From: Escherichia phage EP02SG
Strand: one strand, 5' to 3'
DNA: 64,000 nucleotides
Sequence record: PQ301181
In this document: positions 27,821 to 35,645 of the stretch, one piece after another
How positions within the stretch are numbered: the stretch's first letter is position 1
Layout of the letters: each line of letters opens with the position of its first letter
Position numbers and translations under genes: made by a program
Notes under the pieces: generated by a model
Told to the model about the DNA's origin: nothing
Databases searched by the model: none
Seen by the model: only the letters and a program-made list of their open reading frames with translations

Positions 27821-28985
27821 CGAAATCTTCCATTTCGTCAAGGTCGTTTTCTATATCTGCTGCAGACGGAGCATCAGAAGTTTTAACCGGAACTTTAGTT
27901 GTTGCTTTGCAATTAATAAGGTCGTTAACAGCGTCATCAACTTCTTTAATAGAAGAGATAGCACCTAGTTTATATTTAGTTTCAATTGCATCTCGGAAAG
28001 GTTTGTGTTTAAACAAAGGTCCCCAGAATTCTACACAATCAGTAGCTTTAGCACGCCACGATTTCTCTTCACGAATCATTTCGCCTGTTTCTTCGTCAAG
28101 GAATTCACGAGCATACCAACCGGCTTTAGGCTTAACCACAAAACCGATTTCAGTTGCCATTTCTAACAAGCCACTGAATGGGTCAATACCACCATCGAAA
28201 TTAACCGTGATTGGGAAAGTAGATTTCTCTTTAACTGTACGAGATTTTTCTGCTTTCAACGTGAAGTCATAACCGGTCAATTCTGTACCTTCTTTAACCT
28301 GACGTTTAGAGATAAAAAATACCGTGTTGGCAGAATAAAGAATACCTGTACCACCGCCCATAATCTCTTTAGGATACAATCCACCAATTTCCATTGCGGT
28401 ATGGTTAATTGCAACACACGGAATATCTTTAATAGTCAGATAAGGAGTCACAATACGGAAAAGAGATTTAAGTGCCTTAGCACGAGACATATCACCTACA
28501 ACTTTCTCGTTCAACGCATCTTCGGTTTCTTTCTTAGATGCAGTATTACCGATTGAATCGATAAAGATAATAACTTTATCACCGCGTTCAATCGCGTCAA
28601 GCTGATTAGTCATATCAACTTTAAGTTGTTCGACGGACTGAATTGGCGTATGAACTACACGGTCTAAATCAACACCCATTGAACGAAAATAAGATTCTGA
28701 AGCACCGAATTCTGAGTCATAAAACAAACAGATTGCATCTTTATATTTCTTCATATATGCTGCAACCATAGTTAGTCCAAACAACGTTTTAAAGTGTTTA
28801 GAAGGAGCAGCAAAAATAGTTAAGCCTGATTGCAACCCTGCATTCAGTGCACCACCTAATGCAATATTCAACATCGGAATACGAGTAGGGACTTCATCAC
28901 GATTATTAAACAGCTTAGACTTAGTCAAGTCTGCAGTCATTTTAGAAGTAGAAGCTTTAATCAGACGAGATTTTAAATCAGACAT
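27813..28985 (-). CDS. uvsX: UvsX recombinase (RecA-like)
   Basis: 390-aa track ORF; RecA fold with Walker A GLTIFAAPSKHFKT and acidic C-tail; matches remembered T4 UvsX. Confidence 0.9.
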   Translation of the reverse strand: MSDLKSRLIKASTSKMTADLTKSKLFNNRDEVPTRIPMLNIALGGALNAGLQSGLTIFAAPSKHFKTLFGLTMVAAYMKKYKDAICLFYDSEFGASESYFRSMGVDLDRVVHTPIQSVEQLKVDMTNQLDAIERGDKVIIFIDSIGNTASKKETEDALNEKVVGDMSRAKALKSLFRIVTPYLTIKDIPCVAINHTAMEIGGLYPKEIMGGGTGILYSANTVFFISKRQVKEGTELTGYDFTLKAEKSRTVKEKSTFPITVNFDGGIDPFSGLLEMATEIGFVVKPKAGWYAREFLDEETGEMIREEKSWRAKATDCVEFWGPLFKHKPFRDAIETKYKLGAISSIKEVDDAVNDLINCKATTKVPVKTSDAPSAADIENDLDEMEDFDE

Positions 28986-29085
28986 TGTATTTTTCCATAG
29001 GCATCATTATATTTTACTCATGTTTAAAAGATAAGACGATTATATACTAAGGGTTATACAGCATTTAAAAACTTTAAACAGGCTC

Positions 29086-29634
29086 TTAACGAGCCCATTT
29101 GATAATTTCTGTAATCAAATAATTACGTTCGCTTGCATTAAATCCTATAACTTTGTTAGCACCGTCATGATTAAGTAATTGATACGTTTGGATTTTGTTA
29201 TGAATTGCAAACTCTTCAAAATATGAAATGACTGTATTAAAACCGAATGAAGACAAAGTAATAAGGTCGTCTTCAAAACTTTCAGTCATTTCGTTACGTG
29301 TTAAAATAATTGTGAACACATCATGGTTTTGGCAAAGACGAACATAATCCTGTTCATAAACATCAAGAACCGAGTCCGCATCTTGTCGAATACGTCCATA
29401 AACCCAGTTACTAATATATCCACGGTCTAACAGATAAATCTTAGTAGGGTCTAAATAATTCAACATCGTTTCGAAACAACCAACTTCATTTCGAGACTTA
29501 ACATCGAAACGTCCATCAACTGTTCGTTTAGGGAAATCAATCTTTACATATCTTTCACTAATTTCCATTATGTCATTAATGAAAGTTGTTTTACCAGCAT
29601 TATCCGGGCCATCTACTAAAATAATTTTAGCCAT
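29086..29634 (-). CDS. P-loop kinase (nucleoside/nucleotide or sugar kinase-like)
   Basis: 182-aa track ORF; Walker A GPDNAGKTT at N-terminus; start within 2 nt of upstream ORF stop. Confidence 0.55.
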   Translation of the reverse strand: MAKIILVDGPDNAGKTTFINDIMEISERYVKIDFPKRTVDGRFDVKSRNEVGCFETMLNYLDPTKIYLLDRGYISNWVYGRIRQDADSVLDVYEQDYVRLCQNHDVFTIILTRNEMTESFEDDLITLSSFGFNTVISYFEEFAIHNKIQTYQLLNHDGANKVIGFNASERNYLITEIIKWAR

Positions 29635-29635
29635 T

Positions 29636-30535
29636 TTATTCCTCGATTACGACATCTTCATATTTAGGTATATTATACGGCGAAGAAATTAAAGCATTAA
29701 AGTAGATGAACTCGCCAAGACCTGGATGGAATACTTCTTCAGGATTTTCGAAATATTGAATCTTCGGACGTCCTTTAAGAATTTGATAGTACTCAGTTTT
29801 AGTTGGATTAAAAATTCGAATCAGCGCTTCTTCAGGATACTTATTTCTGTCGAAACTATTATTTGGATCAGTTATATAAAGCGGTTGACCTAATTGAATT
29901 GCGCATTCAACCACTTGTTCAAAACGATAGCATGGGTCACTAATTCGAAATGGATGAAAAATACCATCTAGATGAATAGGAGCCAAATCACCTACAAGAC
30001 GCTGCATGACGGAAGGACGTATAACTTTCTGTGTTACGATAATCTTATTACCATCTGCACCTGCGTTAACCAGCACTTCTTTTTGACGTTCATTCAACAC
30101 AGTAGTTTGAAGTGAACGATTAACAGACAACATGTCGGTTTTTAAGAATTCATCAATATAAAAACGTGGTTTATTAGGGTCTGCAGTGATATTGAAATTG
30201 AATTCTACGTCAAAAGCGCCATCATATCCAGTGATATCTGTGATTAGAAAATCACAATCATAATAAGCAATTAATGAATCAACCACAAATTCATTTTCAG
30301 ACCAGAAATATTTACGAGTGTTATACGCGTTATCTTTATACCATAATGGAACAAACTTAAATTCCGGAAAAAGACGTTCGCATTCTTTAATATCAGATGC
30401 ATTACGTGGATATGTAATCACATCACCTGGATTAGCACGGTGCAAATGAAGTTGGAAGTTGCCATCCTTAAGGATAGCATACTGACCAGTTTCATAAGAC
30501 CGCATACTCAAGATAGGTACACGGAAAATAGCCAT
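29636..30535 (-). CDS. hypothetical protein (299 aa) at the T4 beta-gt position
   Basis: Track ORF; start overlaps gp42 stop at 30535; no recognisable resemblance to T4 beta-glucosyltransferase. Confidence 0.5.
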   Translation of the reverse strand: MAIFRVPILSMRSYETGQYAILKDGNFQLHLHRANPGDVITYPRNASDIKECERLFPEFKFVPLWYKDNAYNTRKYFWSENEFVVDSLIAYYDCDFLITDITGYDGAFDVEFNFNITADPNKPRFYIDEFLKTDMLSVNRSLQTTVLNERQKEVLVNAGADGNKIIVTQKVIRPSVMQRLVGDLAPIHLDGIFHPFRISDPCYRFEQVVECAIQLGQPLYITDPNNSFDRNKYPEEALIRIFNPTKTEYYQILKGRPKIQYFENPEEVFHPGLGEFIYFNALISSPYNIPKYEDVVIEE

Positions 30536-31251
30536 TAGTCAAGGAATCCTTTAACATAATCAAAATCACGTTCAAACACATGGGCACTTACCATGGTATG
30601 AGTATAATCACCAACTTCTACACCACATTCATTAGCGATATAATGAAGTAATTTTCCTTGGAGATAAAAATCCAACTGCATAACAACAGCACAGTTCTGA
30701 GAACGCATATGACAGTGGGTATAAAGCTTACCATCACGAATATAATAAGTCACTGAGTCAGTACATGGATATTCAAGTGTTTCGTCCGAATCAAGCAAAG
30801 CCTGATCTGAACTTTCTAGAATTTGGAACACAACTCTTCGGGAGTTAGGCTTCTCTTTAAGTTCTTTTAGAAGAGCTGGTAATTGGGCCGCAATGCGAGG
30901 ACCATAGAAAGTGTTGAAGTTCGCCGGCAAAACATCTGATTTTGGTTTAGAAATAAATTTAGCGACATTAGGATATGCCTTAAACGCTTCTTCTGCGTTG
31001 GTACCACCAGAAATCATAAACTTCCAGAAGTCTTCGGCATATTCATAAGAGATGCGGTTAATACGTGGGTCGGTCATTTTGAATGATGATGGAGTGTCAA
31101 CAACTACTGTCATAGACCCAATTTCATTACAACGTCCAATACGAGAATCAGTTACGAATTCCGGGTTTTCTAAAATTTCACGATTGACTGCTTTAAATGC
31201 GGTTTGAAAATCTGCGGCTTTAATATATTTCATTGTGTTATGTTTTCCCAT
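30535..31251 (-). CDS. 42: dCMP hydroxymethylase gp42 (thymidylate synthase family)
   Basis: 238-aa track ORF; TS-fold block PCTDSVTYYIRDGKLYTHCHMRSQNCAVVMQLDFYLQGKLLHYIANECGVEVGDYTHTMVSAHVF; length and position match gene 42 rather than td. Confidence 0.8.
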   Translation of the reverse strand: MGKHNTMKYIKAADFQTAFKAVNREILENPEFVTDSRIGRCNEIGSMTVVVDTPSSFKMTDPRINRISYEYAEDFWKFMISGGTNAEEAFKAYPNVAKFISKPKSDVLPANFNTFYGPRIAAQLPALLKELKEKPNSRRVVFQILESSDQALLDSDETLEYPCTDSVTYYIRDGKLYTHCHMRSQNCAVVMQLDFYLQGKLLHYIANECGVEVGDYTHTMVSAHVFERDFDYVKGFLD

Positions 31252-31269
31252 GTTTACCTCAATACAGTT

Positions 31270-31295
31270 ATTATATACTCAATTCATAAAGCTTA
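31270..31295 (-). promoter_or_regulatory. possible MotA-type middle promoter upstream of gene 42
   Basis: rc: TAAGCTTTA - 11 nt - TATAAT then GAGGTAAAC SD and ATG at 31251; one mismatch to MotA box. Confidence 0.35.
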
Positions 31296-31374
31296 TTTGA
31301 ATTTCTTAGCGATGTTGATATAACGTAAAGCTTCAGCATCGATATTTCCAAGAACACTATGAAGAAATGCATCA

Positions 31375-31533
31375 GCGTAGTATTCTAGTTGAACAGGTTT
31401 CTTTAATCACTTTAGCCGCTTTAGTTTCAAACAGGCCCATAAGGGCCTTTTTAAGAATTTGTTCGTTGCTGTTAATTTTAATAGTCAAAATCTCTTCGTT
31501 AAGTTGGTGGTTAAAAGTTTTTCTAGAAATCAT
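31375..31533 (-). CDS. small hypothetical protein (about 52 aa)
   Basis: Hand-translated MISRKTFNHQLNEEIL...; ATGA overlap with stop of the 386-aa ORF; coordinates approximate. Confidence 0.25.
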
Positions 31534-32690
31534 TCTGGGTACCTCAAAGCGTCATCAGAGTTAGTTATATCAATAATAGATATAGAGTTTTCTGATAACC
31601 CATTTTTAGATAACTGACGTTTATAATATCTTTCACAATATGTACACGTCGTCCCACAGATTTCATTAGCACAATCGAAATCTGGATGTTTGAACCACCT
31701 TTTTTCTAAAAAGCCGTCTAACAAAGAGGTTTCAATATTTACCGTATGTGAAAACTCAGTCTCATTTTCAAGAGTGAAAATGGTCTCTAAAGGCTTCCAC
31801 AATTCCAACAAATTACCTTCAAACTTTTCAGAAGCGTAAGCTTCAAGAACTTTTAAAATGTAGTCGGTGCTACCTGTACGTCCTGAAACTTTAAATTGAG
31901 TGATACCAATATCATTATAAAGTTTCAAATCTTGAGGACGAACAAAACGAGTTCTCAACCAGTTAAATGGATCTGTATCACGAGCTTTAATACAGTGTTG
32001 CATTGGATATCCATTTAAAGATTTGGCATCATCTACTGTAACATCGGTGCTATGGAAAATATAGCAAGAGTCACGATAGCTACAATGTGTTGTATACCCT
32101 TTACCAGCATTAGAACAGAACTCATTTACAAGAACTTCAAATATTATATTGTTCTTATTGCAAAACTCTGCTGCACGCTTCAGGAAAGAAACTGAACGGT
32201 TCTTATGAATTCCACAACAGACCTTTTTGATATTATACTGGTCATGCAAGTATTTGATTTGAGTTACAGCATCAACATGTAGAATTGTTGAAACTTCAAT
32301 CTCAATGTCTTTATTGACTTCACGAACAATTTCCATAACAACAGGGTTAGCGATAGTAATACGCCATACGCCTATTGACCAAAGATACTGAACATAATCC
32401 TGAATAGCTTTCTTCTTCCACTCAACTAGTTCTCTTTTTGAACCAGGATTTATCGTGTTGAGTGTATAGTTAAAGCAAATACCTAATTCGTTACAACGTT
32501 TAACGTAATCTTCTAACATCTTTTTGTCAACGTCAGGAAGCCTAAAATCAGGTCTGGCTGCTACAAAAGCCATTTCTCTTGTAGAGCCGTATACTTCGTT
32601 TATCAAGCTATTAGGATAAGTTTTATTGAGCTCTACGATTTTATCAAGAAGAGCTAAATCAAAATTCGTTCCGATTTTAAAAGTATTCAT
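31530..32690 (-). CDS. Cys-rich putative metalloenzyme (386 aa), possibly TIM-barrel/Fe-S (peptidase U32-like?)
   Basis: Track ORF; Cys clusters NEFCSNAGKGYTTHCSYRDSCYIF and CANEICGTTCTYCERYY; family assignment uncertain. Confidence 0.5.
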   Translation of the reverse strand: MNTFKIGTNFDLALLDKIVELNKTYPNSLINEVYGSTREMAFVAARPDFRLPDVDKKMLEDYVKRCNELGICFNYTLNTINPGSKRELVEWKKKAIQDYVQYLWSIGVWRITIANPVVMEIVREVNKDIEIEVSTILHVDAVTQIKYLHDQYNIKKVCCGIHKNRSVSFLKRAAEFCNKNNIIFEVLVNEFCSNAGKGYTTHCSYRDSCYIFHSTDVTVDDAKSLNGYPMQHCIKARDTDPFNWLRTRFVRPQDLKLYNDIGITQFKVSGRTGSTDYILKVLEAYASEKFEGNLLELWKPLETIFTLENETEFSHTVNIETSLLDGFLEKRWFKHPDFDCANEICGTTCTYCERYYKRQLSKNGLSENSISIIDITNSDDALRYPE

Positions 32691-32753: not shown

Positions 32754-33140
32754 TTATAGATTCGGTTTATATGATTTAAATGTTTCGAATTCGCCTTTAT
32801 TCATAAGAGCTTTGAATTCGTCAGGACGCATAGCTTTGTCGTCGATAATCCAATCATATACTGGTTTATGTGTTAGCAAATTATGGTACTTCAATCCAAT
32901 GTTTGCCAAGTTCTGAATCAGACTTGGGAGAATGTCAATTGCTATACGACCAGGACCGACTGACTTCATACCGCGAGCAGTGTAAAGCGTTATGGTATGC
33001 CCTGCATCATACAGGGCATTAATGGCAGACACCATTTCGACGTCTGGTTTGAAGTTCACGTAATCACGATTGTTATTCCACTCTGTTATACAATCATCGA
33101 CATCAAAACAAAGATTAAGCATGTTTTCTACACGGTGCAT
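32754..33140 (-). CDS. HAD-superfamily sugar-phosphate phosphatase (KdsC-like)
   Basis: Track ORF 32754..33155 trimmed to MHRVEN (TAATG overlap with upstream stop); HAD motif I FDVDDCIT, motif II TLYTARG, motif IV WIIDDK. Confidence 0.55.
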   Translation of the reverse strand: MHRVENMLNLCFDVDDCITEWNNNRDYVNFKPDVEMVSAINALYDAGHTITLYTARGMKSVGPGRIAIDILPSLIQNLANIGLKYHNLLTHKPVYDWIIDDKAMRPDEFKALMNKGEFETFKSYKPNL

Positions 33141-34828
33141 TAGATTCGTTCCCATTGATGAGTGATATCGCCACCGATTGGACGATAAGAAACACCAGTT
33201 TCTTTATCAGTTAGTACCCATTTACCAGGATTTTTTGTAATCAGAGTAGCCGTTACAGGTTCTGCTACATCATAACTAATAGTGCCGTCCTGAAGTACAC
33301 GGCCCATGTTACGTAATTGCTTAGTCAGAAGTTCCATACCTTTATAATATGCGGCTACCGCTTTAAGTGGATTATTCTTGAAATAACCACCTAATGCAAT
33401 CCAGATAATTGCCACTGCCAAATGATGATACTCGTTAAACGAACTCATCTTTCCATATTTGTAAACTAACGGATTGATGTTAATAGTCACATTACAAGTT
33501 GTTTCATCAATAGTAAACTGTCCCCAAGTCGGATTAGCGTTGAATTCATCATAACCTGAAACAGCGTAAAGCACTTTAGCTTCATCATACAATTTTGGCC
33601 CATAAATCTTGGTTTCACCAAAATATCCACGAGGGTCGATAAACTTGACTTCACCATTATCAGTAATCATAGTATTACTGAAGTTCGGGTCACCATGAAT
33701 AACAGAGTACTGTCCCTGAGAACGGTTATGATAACGAATAAGGTGTTCTAAAGCTTGTTTCAACATTGGCTTCAGACGCCCAATCTTAGTGTAGTTCACA
33801 TGTGTGATTTTACCAAATGAATCAATCAATGGTTGAATACTTTCACAACGATCAATAACTTTAGTATAGAATTCTTTAGTGAAATCACGACGAACAGTTT
33901 CAGGACTTACAAAATAAGTGTCTGTGCTGAATTTCAGTGCATCTAAAATTGCATCAATAATTTGTGGACGAGCAAGACTTGATTTGGATTTAATATATTC
34001 AAATGCTGGCTTACCTTTAATACGTTCCATAATAAAGTGGCCGCCAGGATGATAACTTACAATCCGTGGAACTGAATCTGATTTAACTTTCTTATACCAA
34101 TTGACTTCATCTTTTTGAAGTGCAACGCCCTGTTCTGTTAAAGCAATCTTTGTTACCGTTTCTTCGCCAATTTCAACTGCATTAAAACTACGATTAAGTT
34201 CACGAACTTCATGAGCTTTTTCAAGTTTAGGCATATCACCAAGATCGATGATATTCATAAGCTCTGATTTATTGAATGCGCTGCCGTAAAGGAATTCTAC
34301 GAAATCACGTCCTTTGCAGTATTCATGAATTTCCTCATCAGTAGAACCCATATAGAATTCCCAGTCTTTGAACTGATAAATTCCTACAACATTACCACCT
34401 GTTGAACCTACATTAGTGATATTTTCACCGTCGAAATTATATCGACATTCGTCACCCTTAACATAGATTGCGTTAACATTCCAAGACCACGAACCAAAAT
34501 CAGGAATAATATCACACCAGTTAACAATTACATTATGGCCGTCTAAATCTTTGTGCAATTTAGCAAGAGCATAAGCAGAACCATACGCTTCATCAACTGT
34601 ACGAATAGTCACATTGAACCCTTCTTGCTCACAATAAGCTCGAACAGTTTCAGCAAATTTTGAATGAACTACTACAATAATTTCATCTGCGCCAAGGTCA
34701 GAATAAATTGTATACAAATTGCTCAGAATAGTGTCTTGTTTATAGTTAACAAGCACCTTAGGAATATGATGCGTTATTGGATACAAACGAGTTGCCAGTC
34801 CAGCACCAAGAATAACAGCTTTTTTCAT
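33140..34828 (-). CDS. bifunctional sugar-1-phosphate nucleotidyltransferase / sugar kinase
   Basis: 562-aa track ORF; N-term MKKAVILGAGLATRLYPIT..PKVLV (RmlA/GalU-type NTP-transferase); C-term HGDPNFSNTMI...FIDPRG (APH/choline-kinase Brenner motif); TGAGGA SD. Confidence 0.65.
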   Translation of the reverse strand: MKKAVILGAGLATRLYPITHHIPKVLVNYKQDTILSNLYTIYSDLGADEIIVVVHSKFAETVRAYCEQEGFNVTIRTVDEAYGSAYALAKLHKDLDGHNVIVNWCDIIPDFGSWSWNVNAIYVKGDECRYNFDGENITNVGSTGGNVVGIYQFKDWEFYMGSTDEEIHEYCKGRDFVEFLYGSAFNKSELMNIIDLGDMPKLEKAHEVRELNRSFNAVEIGEETVTKIALTEQGVALQKDEVNWYKKVKSDSVPRIVSYHPGGHFIMERIKGKPAFEYIKSKSSLARPQIIDAILDALKFSTDTYFVSPETVRRDFTKEFYTKVIDRCESIQPLIDSFGKITHVNYTKIGRLKPMLKQALEHLIRYHNRSQGQYSVIHGDPNFSNTMITDNGEVKFIDPRGYFGETKIYGPKLYDEAKVLYAVSGYDEFNANPTWGQFTIDETTCNVTININPLVYKYGKMSSFNEYHHLAVAIIWIALGGYFKNNPLKAVAAYYKGMELLTKQLRNMGRVLQDGTISYDVAEPVTATLITKNPGKWVLTDKETGVSYRPIGGDITHQWERI

Positions 34829-34869: not shown

Positions 34870-35013
34870 CTAGTTAAAGCATTCATACTTTGCTTGTAGT
34901 CCAATCATAATCCATCCGATTATAAGAGTCGGAATCATTACTGGAGCCGTTAAGCTCCAGTAGATAGTCATGACAAGCATCAATAGTAAAAGTCCTATTG
35001 TTATTGCTTTCAT
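34870..35013 (-). CDS. small membrane protein (about 47 aa)
   Basis: Hand-translated MKAITIGLLLLMLVMTIYWSLTAPVMIPTLIIGWIMIGLQAKYECFN; ATGA overlap with stop of the SIS-domain gene. Confidence 0.3.
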   Translation of the reverse strand: MKAITIGLLLLMLVMTIYWSLTAPVMIPTLIIGWIMIGLQAKYECFN

Positions 35014-35645
35014 TGTTCGCCTCGTAACATGGCACCTAGTGCACCGCCGGGGTGGAACTTAAGGAAGTCATTAGAGGTAAATCCACGTTCAGACGAAAGG
35101 TTGATAGCAAACGTATCGATAAGCGCTAACAACAATGTAGTGGACATGGTCGGAGCCAGAGAATTCTCATCAACCTCTACTGCGATGCCTGTACAGAACG
35201 TATAATCAAAAAGAGCTTCGTATTCTTGTGGAATGTCCGGGTTACAATGCAACAGAATCTGTTTGACGTTCGGACGAATCATTTTAAGATGCTTAGCCAC
35301 GCCTATCATTTCTTCAGTTTTACCAGAACGACTAATATGAATCAACACATCATTAGGCGCAATGAATCCTGCATCACCGTGAGAATAATGCCCAGTGTTC
35401 AAGTACATACTCGGGATACCGAGTGAAGCAAATGTCTCAGAAGCTTTAGTTGCAATATTAGCATTCTTACCAACACCTGTAATAATTACTCGGCTTTCAT
35501 AATTACTAAGTCCTGGGCGTCGAAGAGTTTCTAGAATAGCATTATAACGAGCAGGGTTTTGACTAATTACTTTGGCCATAGCGGCCAAAGAAGAAGCTTG
35601 TTTTATGATTGCGTCAATAGCGATAGTAATAGGAGTAGTTTTCAT
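35010..35645 (-). CDS. SIS-domain sugar-phosphate isomerase, arabinose-5-phosphate isomerase (KdsD/GutQ/KpsF)-like
   Basis: 211-aa track ORF; ITGVGKNANIATKASETFASLGIPS...HGDAGFI...VLIHISRSGKTEE...LAPTMSTTLLLALIDTF...FHPGGALG match SIS/API signature; no CBS domains. Confidence 0.7.
   Translation of the reverse strand: MKTTPITIAIDAIIKQASSLAAMAKVISQNPARYNAILETLRRPGLSNYESRVIITGVGKNANIATKASETFASLGIPSMYLNTGHYSHGDAGFIAPNDVLIHISRSGKTEEMIGVAKHLKMIRPNVKQILLHCNPDIPQEYEALFDYTFCTGIAVEVDENSLAPTMSTTLLLALIDTFAINLSSERGFTSNDFLKFHPGGALGAMLRGEQ

Follow-up and report, generated by a model that had tools for sequence, protein, structure and literature searches.

Within a window of 64,000 nucleotides from Escherichia phage EP02SG (sequence record PQ301181), the whole stretch of DNA analysed here, direct reading of the minus strand yields an open reading frame of 182 amino acids with an ATG start at 29086..29634. 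The initial annotation had placed a small kinase of this length at the same position, leaving the strand unstated. The predicted protein is the orthologue of RB69 gp45 (RB69ORF045c, NP_861735.1; RefSeq name "thymidylate kinase"), with 179 of the 182 residues identical (98%), and we regard the two as the same gene in sister phages, with no substantive difference between them. The counterparts in ST0 and JQD51 are identical to it. The surrounding 7 kb are 97–98% identical to many Mosigvirus genomes (PNJ-9, HY126, JS09, ST0 and others); in HY126, which matches the window at 97.9% identity over 7 kb, the GenBank record labels the gene hypothetical.

The open reading frame is a real gene under purifying selection, as evident from its coupled start, from homologues in 343 phage records and from dN/dS values of 0.0–0.2 among close Mosigvirus relatives, which rest on small counts. 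Its translational coupling signal (29635..29644, minus strand, ...TAATCGAGGAATAAAATGGC...) reads GAGGAA-TAA-A-ATG. The Shine-Dalgarno sequence GAGGAA (29639–29644) thus lies within the 3′ end of the upstream glycosyltransferase gene, whose stop codon is separated from the kinase start by one base. Around the kinase stop codon, which lies in the loop, a terminator-like hairpin with a U-rich tract (29066..29100, minus strand) folds with −17.5 kcal/mol (z −2.9). It is the sole terminator-like site within 28800–31700, where 1.4 are expected by chance, and as weak evidence it probably marks the end of the transcription unit ahead of uvsX. The promoter scan returned 12 sites against 12.0 expected by chance; given this lack of excess, no promoter is claimed.

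The gene cluster around the kinase

In order of transcription, the region carries gp43, an isomerase gene, a gene for a 562-aa nucleotidyltransferase/kinase, a HAD phosphatase gene, a U32 gene, a small open reading frame, a thymidylate-synthase-like gene ("synthase"), a glycosyltransferase gene, the kinase gene, uvsX, gp40 and gp41, which is the local gene order of RB69. All features described in this section lie on the minus strand. The isomerase (35010..35645, 211 aa), the counterpart of RB69 gp55, is 99% identical to the JS09/RB69 gene annotated as arabinose 5-phosphate isomerase. The 562-aa protein (33140..34828), the counterpart of RB69 gp52:53 and HY126 AfhE, is a bifunctional nucleotidyltransferase/kinase that matches Pfam NTP_transferase (E 1e-9) and, in its C-terminal half, weakly the APH/fructosamine-kinase families of Pfam. 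It is followed by the HAD-type phosphatase (32754..33155, 133 aa, PHROG 1238), the counterpart of RB69 gp51 and HY126 AfhF, whose function has been described elsewhere (PMC13326640), and by a U32 "peptidase"-family protein (31530..32690, 386 aa; Peptidase_U32 E 6e-11, PHROG 5757), the counterpart of RB69 gp50. Arabinose activation is accomplished by an arabinose-5-phosphate isomerase, a bifunctional kinase/uridylyltransferase and a phosphatase (PMC13326640, citing work on phage HY126).

The last three genes before uvsX, encoding synthase, glycosyltransferase and kinase, are co-directional, with synthase and glycosyltransferase overlapping by 1 nt and a spacer of 1 nt before the kinase. The synthase (30535..31251, 238 aa; Pfam Thymidylat_synt E 2e-15) is 99% identical to RB69 gp48, for which activity as a flavin- and O2-dependent 5-hydroxy-dCMP synthase has been shown; purified gp48 carries a bound flavin species, and the origin of the hydroxyl oxygen was probed by 18O2 labelling (PMC13326640). 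D169N (numbering of E. coli ThyA) is the hallmark of such synthases (PMC13326640), and the motif HMRSQNCAV...LD of the window protein contains exactly this substitution together with N177D, giving the signature RSQN. As the MAFFT alignment was two columns out of register in the D169 region, the signature was read from the conserved RS anchor and checked in 28 loci.

The initial annotation had coupled the kinase to a "gp42" operon. The kinase gene does share one tightly packed string with a thymidylate-synthase-like enzyme, but the identity to RB69 gp48 and the D169N motif rule out a T4-type gp42 hydroxymethylase, and since the neighbour is a gp48-type 5-hydroxy-dCMP synthase, the operon is one for 5-hydroxycytosine and its arabinosylation. 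The DNA of RB69 contains arabinosyl-5-hydroxycytosine rather than arabinosyl-hydroxymethylcytosine (Lee et al, 2026, PMC13326640), and the arabosylated 5-hydroxycytosine, in ether linkage, is reported to be the only form present (PMC13326640). Nor do the kinase and the synthase adjoin each other, as had been assumed: the 299-aa glycosyltransferase gene (29636..30535; PHROG 3891, E 1e-155) lies between them. Its product is 98–100% identical to the JS09 and RB69 counterparts, the latter being gp46:47, which was proposed as the first arabinosyltransferase but not reconstituted (PMC13326640). The cluster thus unites the kinase with a DNA glycosyltransferase and a thymidylate-synthase homologue of the D169N type. 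That gp1, which phosphorylates hmdCMP in T4, is encoded far away agrees with a tblastn search using the gp1 homologue of Morganella phage MP1 as query, which found no gp1-type dNMP kinase in the window.

A divergent member of the thymidylate-kinase superfamily

Three sequence features, all on the minus strand, tie the protein to thymidylate kinases. The P-loop (Walker A motif) GPDNAGKTT at 29584..29610 was present as initially annotated, although direct reading places it at residues 9–17 and not 8–16. The FPKR motif (29524..29535, residues 34–37), aligned by HMMER to vaccinia thymidylate kinase (2v54), lines up with FPQR/FPER, a segment of the nucleotide-binding region in class I thymidylate kinases. 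D70-R71 (29422..29427) is the counterpart of the DR(Y/H/F) that follows strand 3 in thymidylate kinases; it aligns to "ivDRYAFSGVAY" of the vaccinia enzyme, and the kinase continues with G72-Y73. The protein thereby combines a GxxxxGK[ST] P-loop (GPDNAGKT, residues 9–16) with the DR motif. Alignment also identifies a lid-like loop, RNEMTESFEDDLI, at 29260..29298 (minus strand, residues 113–125), which is short and acidic, with R113, F120, D122 and D123 invariant and R113 its single conserved arginine. The F-x-DD lid motif recurs in the distant kinases of the loci L058 and L063, described below; confidence in the structural model is lower in the lid-loop block (mean pLDDT 64 over residues 121–130).

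In the alignment of the close family, G9, D11, N12, G14, K15 and T16 of the P-loop are invariant, as are F34, P35 and K36, G41 and R42, R48, N49 and E50, D70 and R71, S75 and N76, the four lid residues, and H156 and N160 towards the C-terminus. Orthologues of the JS98 type are without R42 and R48. Among 79 distant members of the wider family, K15 and R71 are invariant, D11 and D70 nearly so, and G9 and G14 invariant or nearly so, with N12 and T16 absent from the listed columns.

How clearly the kinship emerges depends on the depth of the profile. A single-sequence search of solved structures with the kinase gave no significant match, and a profile of 20 close homologues gave weak thymidylate-kinase matches that aligned from the P-loop through FPxR. 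An exhaustive search of 1.84 billion proteins with this 20-homologue profile retrieved a small family of 309 representatives. Only the wider profile, built from 79 of these 309, produced significant thymidylate-kinase matches, among them vaccinia thymidylate kinase (E 1.8e-13), aligned along its whole length, and many further enzymes of this kind; it also matched YorR of the prophage SPbeta (E 4.5e-20). Consistently, 61 of the 79 wider family members match Pfam Thymidylate_kin, and the kinase itself matches PHROG 761, labelled "thymidylate kinase", with E 5.8e-45. The predicted structure likewise has the parallel sheet, P-loop, nucleotide-binding segment and lid of the thymidylate-kinase fold, and its best structural matches are all small-molecule kinases and not DNA or polynucleotide kinases. 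Fold prediction, a check suggested in the initial annotation, therefore speaks for the thymidylate-kinase type that had been named there and against the DNA-repair or packaging ATPase that had been its counter-proposal. Neither in sequence nor in fold is T4 gp1 (PDB 1del, 1dek) the closest relative of the kinase.

Two other relatives were considered and dismissed. The top matches to RecA were confined to the P-loop and summed over multi-copy fusion chains, and are artefacts. An AAA_33 identity (PF13671), the second half of the initial family assignment, fails because the kinase has no such match at E up to 1 and only four of the 79 wider members match AAA_33.

The protein is, at the same time, no canonical dTMP kinase. 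Pfam returned nothing above cut-offs for it, AAA_14 reaching E 0.04 and Thymidylate_kin giving no match; the NCBIfam dTMP-kinase model TIGR00041 scored 15.6 bits against a cut-off of 83.25, in a match that spans the P-loop only; and hhalign of the close-homologue profile with E. coli Tmk aligned only the 24-residue P-loop region. Class I thymidylate kinases carry an arginine or lysine at the fourth P-loop position, and class II enzymes an arginine cluster in the lid. The kinase has neither of these catalytic basic elements: the P-loop position is held by the invariant N12, and the lid offers R113 alone. Compared with the class I enzymes, to which it is 8–19% identical (vaccinia A48R 2v54, yeast 1tmk, human 1e2d), it retains the aspartate of the P-loop along with FPxR and DR but differs in N12, in a helical segment between FPxR and DR that is about 20 residues shorter, in its short acidic lid (F-E-D-D) and in an extra C-terminal hairpin with the invariant H156 and N160; the lid of class II enzymes, in contrast to the short and acidic one here, is arginine-rich. 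With the core motifs kept and these elements altered, the kinase is a divergent member of the thymidylate-kinase superfamily. YorR of Bacillus subtilis (PDB 2axp, 3kb2), matched by the wider profile, has a degenerate P-loop (GPDCCFKS) and permits no transfer of function, as it is itself uncharacterised and without evident link to a thymidylate-synthase homologue.

Co-distribution of kinase and synthase

A survey of 50,697 phage records detected the kinase in 343 of them and the D169N-type synthase in 345, with near-identical counts within host genera (kinase/synthase: Escherichia 176/176, Acinetobacter 57/57, Klebsiella 25/26, Shigella 15/15). We examined the linkage from both sides. Starting from the kinase, we sampled 18 loci from viral contigs, 16 of them from T4-like phages; the synthase is present at 14 of these 16, one further locus (L007) being a 4.4-kb contig that ends before the synthase position. 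Starting from the synthase, 29 of 30 sampled loci were informative, the thirtieth being a short contig that ends just past the transferase, and all 29 have the kinase within 10 kb of the synthase.

This linkage is kept through at least three gene orders. Mosigvirus, Acinetobacter phages and others share the order synthase, glycosyltransferase, kinase; JS98 and its relatives have HAD phosphatase, kinase, synthase, glycosyltransferase; and in L021 and the Proteus and Klebsiella types a U32 gene is inserted between kinase and synthase of the latter order. The neighbourhood of kinase, transferase and synthase has also been noted in Acinetobacter phage DLP3 and in Rhizobium phage RL38J1, the latter with hexoses and not arabinose as its sugars (PMC13326640). 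Outside T4-like genomes, L058 holds a four-gene island of flavodoxin-like gene, synthase, glycosyltransferase and kinase amid structural genes, while in L059 the kinase adjoins a MazG-like gene and lies roughly 3 kb away from a synthase of the D169N type, with no transferase homologue detected nearby. A tblastn search around the kinase–synthase pairs of these two loci found no homologue of the arabinose genes. In L063, also outside the T4-like genomes, a D169N-type synthase is followed by a fusion of the kinase with an HhH-GPD domain, an FMN reductase, an isomerase and an AfhE-like protein. The constant partner of the kinase is thus the C5-modifying thymidylate-synthase homologue and not the arabinose genes. 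A more distant kinase relative (L023) is accompanied by a MazG-like gene and a ThyA homologue of the hydroxymethylase type.

The fusion in L063 is part of a wider pattern, as eight distant representative clusters among the search matches, 314–357 aa in length, combine an N-terminal kinase domain with extra C-terminal sequence. In two of these eight, the C-terminal part matches HhH-GPD, the domain of base-flipping DNA glycosylases.

Few genes of the cluster evolve as fast as the kinase: its identity between the window and JS98 is 38%, compared with 80% for the synthase. It is also not strictly bound to the synthase. Morganella phage MP1 has the order gp43, two small open reading frames, kinase and uvsX, and tblastn over the whole MP1 genome found no homologue of synthase, transferase, U32 protein, HAD phosphatase, AfhE-like protein or isomerase. 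The MP1 kinase is nonetheless intact, with every family motif. Rgz1, a relative of MP1, carries the full modification cluster; the kinases of the two phages are only 60% identical, whereas their uvsX proteins are 92% identical. MP1 also encodes a gp1-type dNMP kinase, td and tk. An intact kinase in a genome without synthase and cluster argues that the protein can serve a purpose where 5-hydroxycytosine is not made, or that it took a new role in MP1.

Which nucleotide the kinase may serve

We consider it about an even chance (roughly 50%) that the protein is an ATP-dependent NMP kinase that converts 5-hydroxy-dCMP from the neighbouring synthase to the diphosphate; its catalytic activity, its monophosphate acceptor and the identity of the nucleotide are what we infer here. 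A role with a hypermodified nucleotide had been among the initial suggestions and is favoured by the near one-to-one co-distribution with the synthase, with the correction that the nucleotide, given a neighbouring 5-hydroxy-dCMP synthase, would be 5-hydroxy-dCMP and not hydroxymethyl-dCMP. The kinase would then be the last, translationally coupled gene of an operon for arabinosylated 5-hydroxycytosine DNA in RB69-type phages. In the proposed mechanism, the P-loop (K15/T16) would hold ATP, while FPKR, D70-R71 and other conserved basic residues would grip the phosphate of the C5-modified deoxycytidylate supplied by the synthase two genes upstream. The resulting diphosphate would be passed on by nucleoside-diphosphate kinase and the phage polymerase, which would bring the nucleotide into DNA. 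Synthase, glycosyltransferase and kinase look, in this view, like a portable three-gene module. Phages that lack a gp1-type kinase would depend on its kinase step, whereas in T4-like phages the step would be partly redundant with the gp1-type dNMP kinase. Such an overlap with the gp1 homologue would explain both the fast evolution of the kinase and the loss of R42 and R48 in the JS98 type. T4 gp1 and its RB69 homologue gp159 are the probable functional analogues, as their substrate is a C5-modified dCMP that a phage thymidylate-synthase homologue provides.

Several observations count against 5-hydroxy-dCMP as the substrate. RB69 gp159 already takes 5hodCMP to 5hodCDP, and synthase plus gp159 are enough to place 5hodC in E. 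coli DNA (PMC13326640), so that gp45 was dispensable for 5hodCMP phosphorylation in that assay. Together with the intact kinase that MP1 keeps without synthase, glycosyltransferase or arabinose genes, this leaves the label "dedicated" kinase, used in the initial annotation, not established. The failure of the curated models, N12 in place of arginine or lysine, the short acidic lid, the loss of R42 and R48 in the JS98 type and the rapid evolution of the kinase weigh in the same direction.

The gene and the idea of a part in base modification are already known. RB69 gp45, the same gene, was described as a thymidylate-kinase homologue that "presumably" contributes to the synthesis of the arabinosylated base (Nikulin and Zimin, 2021, PMC8056088), and structural matches led Lee et al (2026, PMC13326640) to list it as "nucleotide kinase", alongside DLP3 gp78 and RL38J1 gp214; the published nucleotide-kinase assignment of gp45 is computational only. 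Our analysis adds a count of how often kinase and synthase occur together, the finding that the synthase, and not the arabinose genes, is what the kinase is linked to, the exceptional case of MP1, and the catalytic positions at which the protein departs from canonical thymidylate kinases. Phages of the RB69 type are in wide use and count among the candidates for phage therapy. The arabinosylated 5-hydroxycytosine in their DNA, the product of a pathway worked out only in 2025–2026, determines which restriction, CRISPR and type IV defences they escape. Knowing what the kinase does would show the minimal gene set for transplanting the modification, and whether the protein controls the entry of the modified nucleotide into DNA, acts on a glycosylated one or is a redundant remnant of a mobile synthase–transferase–kinase module.

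Other substrates would fit parts of the evidence. The protein might be a general pyrimidine (d)NMP kinase, that is a true dTMP/dUMP kinase that raises dTTP supply, its position in the cluster being an accident of the variable uvsX–gp43 region. Fold and profile matches to thymidylate kinases speak for this, as does MP1, in which the gene persists with all motifs where the modification cluster was lost or never present. We nevertheless think it rather unlikely, as both curated dTMP-kinase models failed and the near one-to-one pairing with the synthase (343 versus 345 records, 29 of 29 informative loci) holds in genomes unrelated to T4. Moreover, dTMP is a substrate of T4 gp1, and both a gp1-type kinase and the host Tmk are already available, MP1 itself having a gp1 homologue. 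A pre-replicative route to the sugar, which we judge improbable, would have the transferase arabinosylate the free nucleotide and the kinase phosphorylate a bulky arabinosyl-5-hydroxy-dCMP beyond the reach of gp1-type kinases, so that the polymerase would build an already glycosylated dNTP into phage DNA; alternatively, the transferase might need the kinase as an obligate partner. In its favour, the gene order synthase, glycosyltransferase, kinase is the order of such a pathway, with the kinase translationally coupled to the transferase gene. Individual DLP3 transferases, moreover, gave no arabinosylation of 5hoC-containing DNA, and Lee et al, who could not reconstitute the first transfer on 5hoC-DNA, left transfer on the nucleotide possible (PMC13326640). 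DNA glycosylation in T4, however, is post-replicative, and in JS98 and L021 the kinase has the phosphatase gene on one side and the synthase (JS98) or U32 gene (L021) on the other, not the transferase; L059 lacks a detectable transferase homologue nearby, and MP1 has a kinase without any transferase.

A quite improbable role is that of a UMP/UDP kinase recycling the UDP released by DNA glycosyltransferases and so sustaining UTP for the demand in UDP-sugars. Some thymidylate-kinase relatives do take uridylate (Candida thymidylate/uridylate kinase 5uiv, E 1.5e-12), and the gene is usually found with transferases that use UDP-sugars. Yet kinases of this fold normally halt at the diphosphate, and MP1 and L059 have no transferase nearby. 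The P-loop aspartate equivalent to D11 contacts the 3′-OH of deoxyribose in thymidylate kinases, so that the near invariance of D11 in the wider family argues for a deoxynucleotide. T4 glucosylates its DNA with UDP-glucose and is not known to use such a kinase, and T4, T2 and T6 relatives are absent from the kinase matches listed. Very unlikely is, furthermore, that the substrate would be no free nucleotide at all, the protein being a DNA-level kinase on 5-hydroxycytosine or another group in DNA, in analogy to the kinases that act on 5-hydroxymethyluracil in the DNA of other phages, or else a non-kinase NTPase or scaffold. The atypical, acidic and arginine-poor lid would suit this, as would the two long clusters ending in HhH-GPD, one such fusion lying in the 5hoC-type cluster of L063. 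Against it stand the structural matches, all to small-molecule kinases, the retained nucleotide-binding motifs of thymidylate kinases, and MP1, which is without the 5hoC pathway; the hydroxyl is, in addition, ether-linked in RB69 DNA (PMC13326640), and phosphorylating it would be chemically without obvious use. The sugar pathway, the second role suggested in the initial annotation, would make the protein a kinase for sugars or sugar phosphates on the way to UDP-arabinose. We reject this scarcely credible reading, although the gene shares its locus with arabinose genes in T4-like phages: the route from isomerase through kinase/uridylyltransferase to phosphatase is complete without the kinase, which is present in the hexose-using RL38J1 as well (PMC13326640). 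The linkage to the synthase is independent of the arabinose genes, being kept in L058 and L059, where tblastn found no arabinose-gene homologues, and the fold is that of nucleotide kinases.

U32 and chorismate mutase genes beside the synthase

The cluster for arabinosylated 5-hydroxycytosine (5hoC) DNA contains a U32 'peptidase'-family gene (window 31530-32690, minus strand; Pfam E 6e-11), whose RB69 counterpart, gp50, is labelled merely 'sugar or heterocycle reductase' in PMC13326640. A type II chorismate mutase gene sits between the cluster's U32 gene and the synthase (the thymidylate synthase homologue of the 5-hydroxy-dCMP synthase type) in both Morganella phage Rgz1 (L025 4023-4400; Pfam CM_2, E 6e-12) and Proteus phage PM2 (L026 8911-9297; Pfam CM_2, E 3e-12). 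In Serratia phage LC53, an annotated chorismate mutase domain protein likewise adjoins the synthase. The product of chorismate mutase is prephenate, and hydroxylation by the U32 proteins RlhA, TrhP and UbiU/V runs without O2. Published work ties these proteins to prephenate-dependent hydroxylation, including the formation of 5-hydroxycytidine in rRNA (PMC5727448, PMC6599085, PMC10990095). This U32-linked chemistry and the chorismate mutase genes beside U32 and synthase together suggest that an anaerobic, prephenate-dependent second route to 5hoC may exist alongside the O2-dependent synthase. A literature search found no paper proposing such a link between U32, chorismate mutase and 5hoC.

Kinase divergence and retention among T4-like phages

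The window kinase shares just 38% identity with the kinase of Dhakavirus (JS98-type) phages (JS98, L002 6995-7531; relatives at loci L040-L044 and L053), whereas the synthase adjoining the JS98-type kinase is still 80% identical to its window counterpart. In addition, two residues that are invariant in the main group of kinases are replaced in the JS98 type, R42 by C and R48 by D. Taken together, the disparity in identity and the two replacements point to a constraint on the JS98-type kinase that has probably been relaxed or shifted.

In Morganella phage MP1 the stretch from gp43 to uvsX retains an intact orthologue of the kinase (NC_031020 20500-21030, corresponding to L017 9995-10525) in which every motif of the kinase family is preserved, and the whole MP1 genome contains no synthase, transferase, U32, phosphatase, AfhE-like or isomerase gene. 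Compared with its relative Rgz1, the MP1 kinase is 60% identical and uvsX 92%.

Kinase relatives in other gene contexts

An 87-kb contig from a phage unrelated to T4 (IMGVR_UViG_3300015360_000029) harbours a four-gene island (L058 9482-12268) that comprises a flavodoxin-like gene, a D169N-type synthase, a glycosyltransferase and the kinase, is surrounded by structural genes and looks like a mobile minimal module. Its flavodoxin-like protein (Pfam Flavodoxin_2, E 2e-16) fits the report of a synthase-bound flavin species.

The gene for a more distant relative, with 32% identity across the N-terminal half, lies on a 47.8-kb contig (L023 10001-12589; IMGVR_UViG_2974599159_000001). The end of a primase-helicase gene overlaps this kinase gene, after which come genes for a MazG-like pyrophosphatase and a ThyA homologue, followed by those for a dCMP deaminase and a family A polymerase. 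Because this ThyA homologue is of the hydroxymethylase type (D169 retained, N177D), the kinase lineage is also found with predicted hydroxymethylcytosine-type pathways.

Lastly, several distant relatives are long (314-357 aa; P0059, P0060 and six others), with the kinase domain at the N-terminus and extra sequence at the C-terminus, which in two of the long relatives matches an HhH-GPD (DNA glycosylase-type) domain. One kinase fusion belongs to a 5hoC-type cluster (L063 4616-10144; GCA_034680565.1, contig JAXOUH010003483.1), in which it comes after a synthase bearing the RSNN signature and before an FMN reductase, an isomerase and an AfhE-like protein. Since the host's endonuclease III, which is likewise of the HhH-GPD type, removes 5-hydroxycytosine by excision, this base might be read or shielded by the fused domain.

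Gene integrity within the window

The transferase (29636-30535, 299 aa) and the nucleotidyltransferase/kinase (33140-34828, 562 aa) are each encoded by one ORF in the window, compared with two pieces each in the RB69 reference record (RB69p046/047 and RB69p052/053), a split that fits the sequencing errors described by PMC6024577 and PMC13326640. The short ORF that separates the U32 gene from the synthase (31372-31533, minus strand) encodes 53 aa in the window and in JS09 versus 79 aa as annotated in RB69, and neither version has a Pfam match. The same interval also holds the chorismate mutase gene in Rgz1 and PM2.
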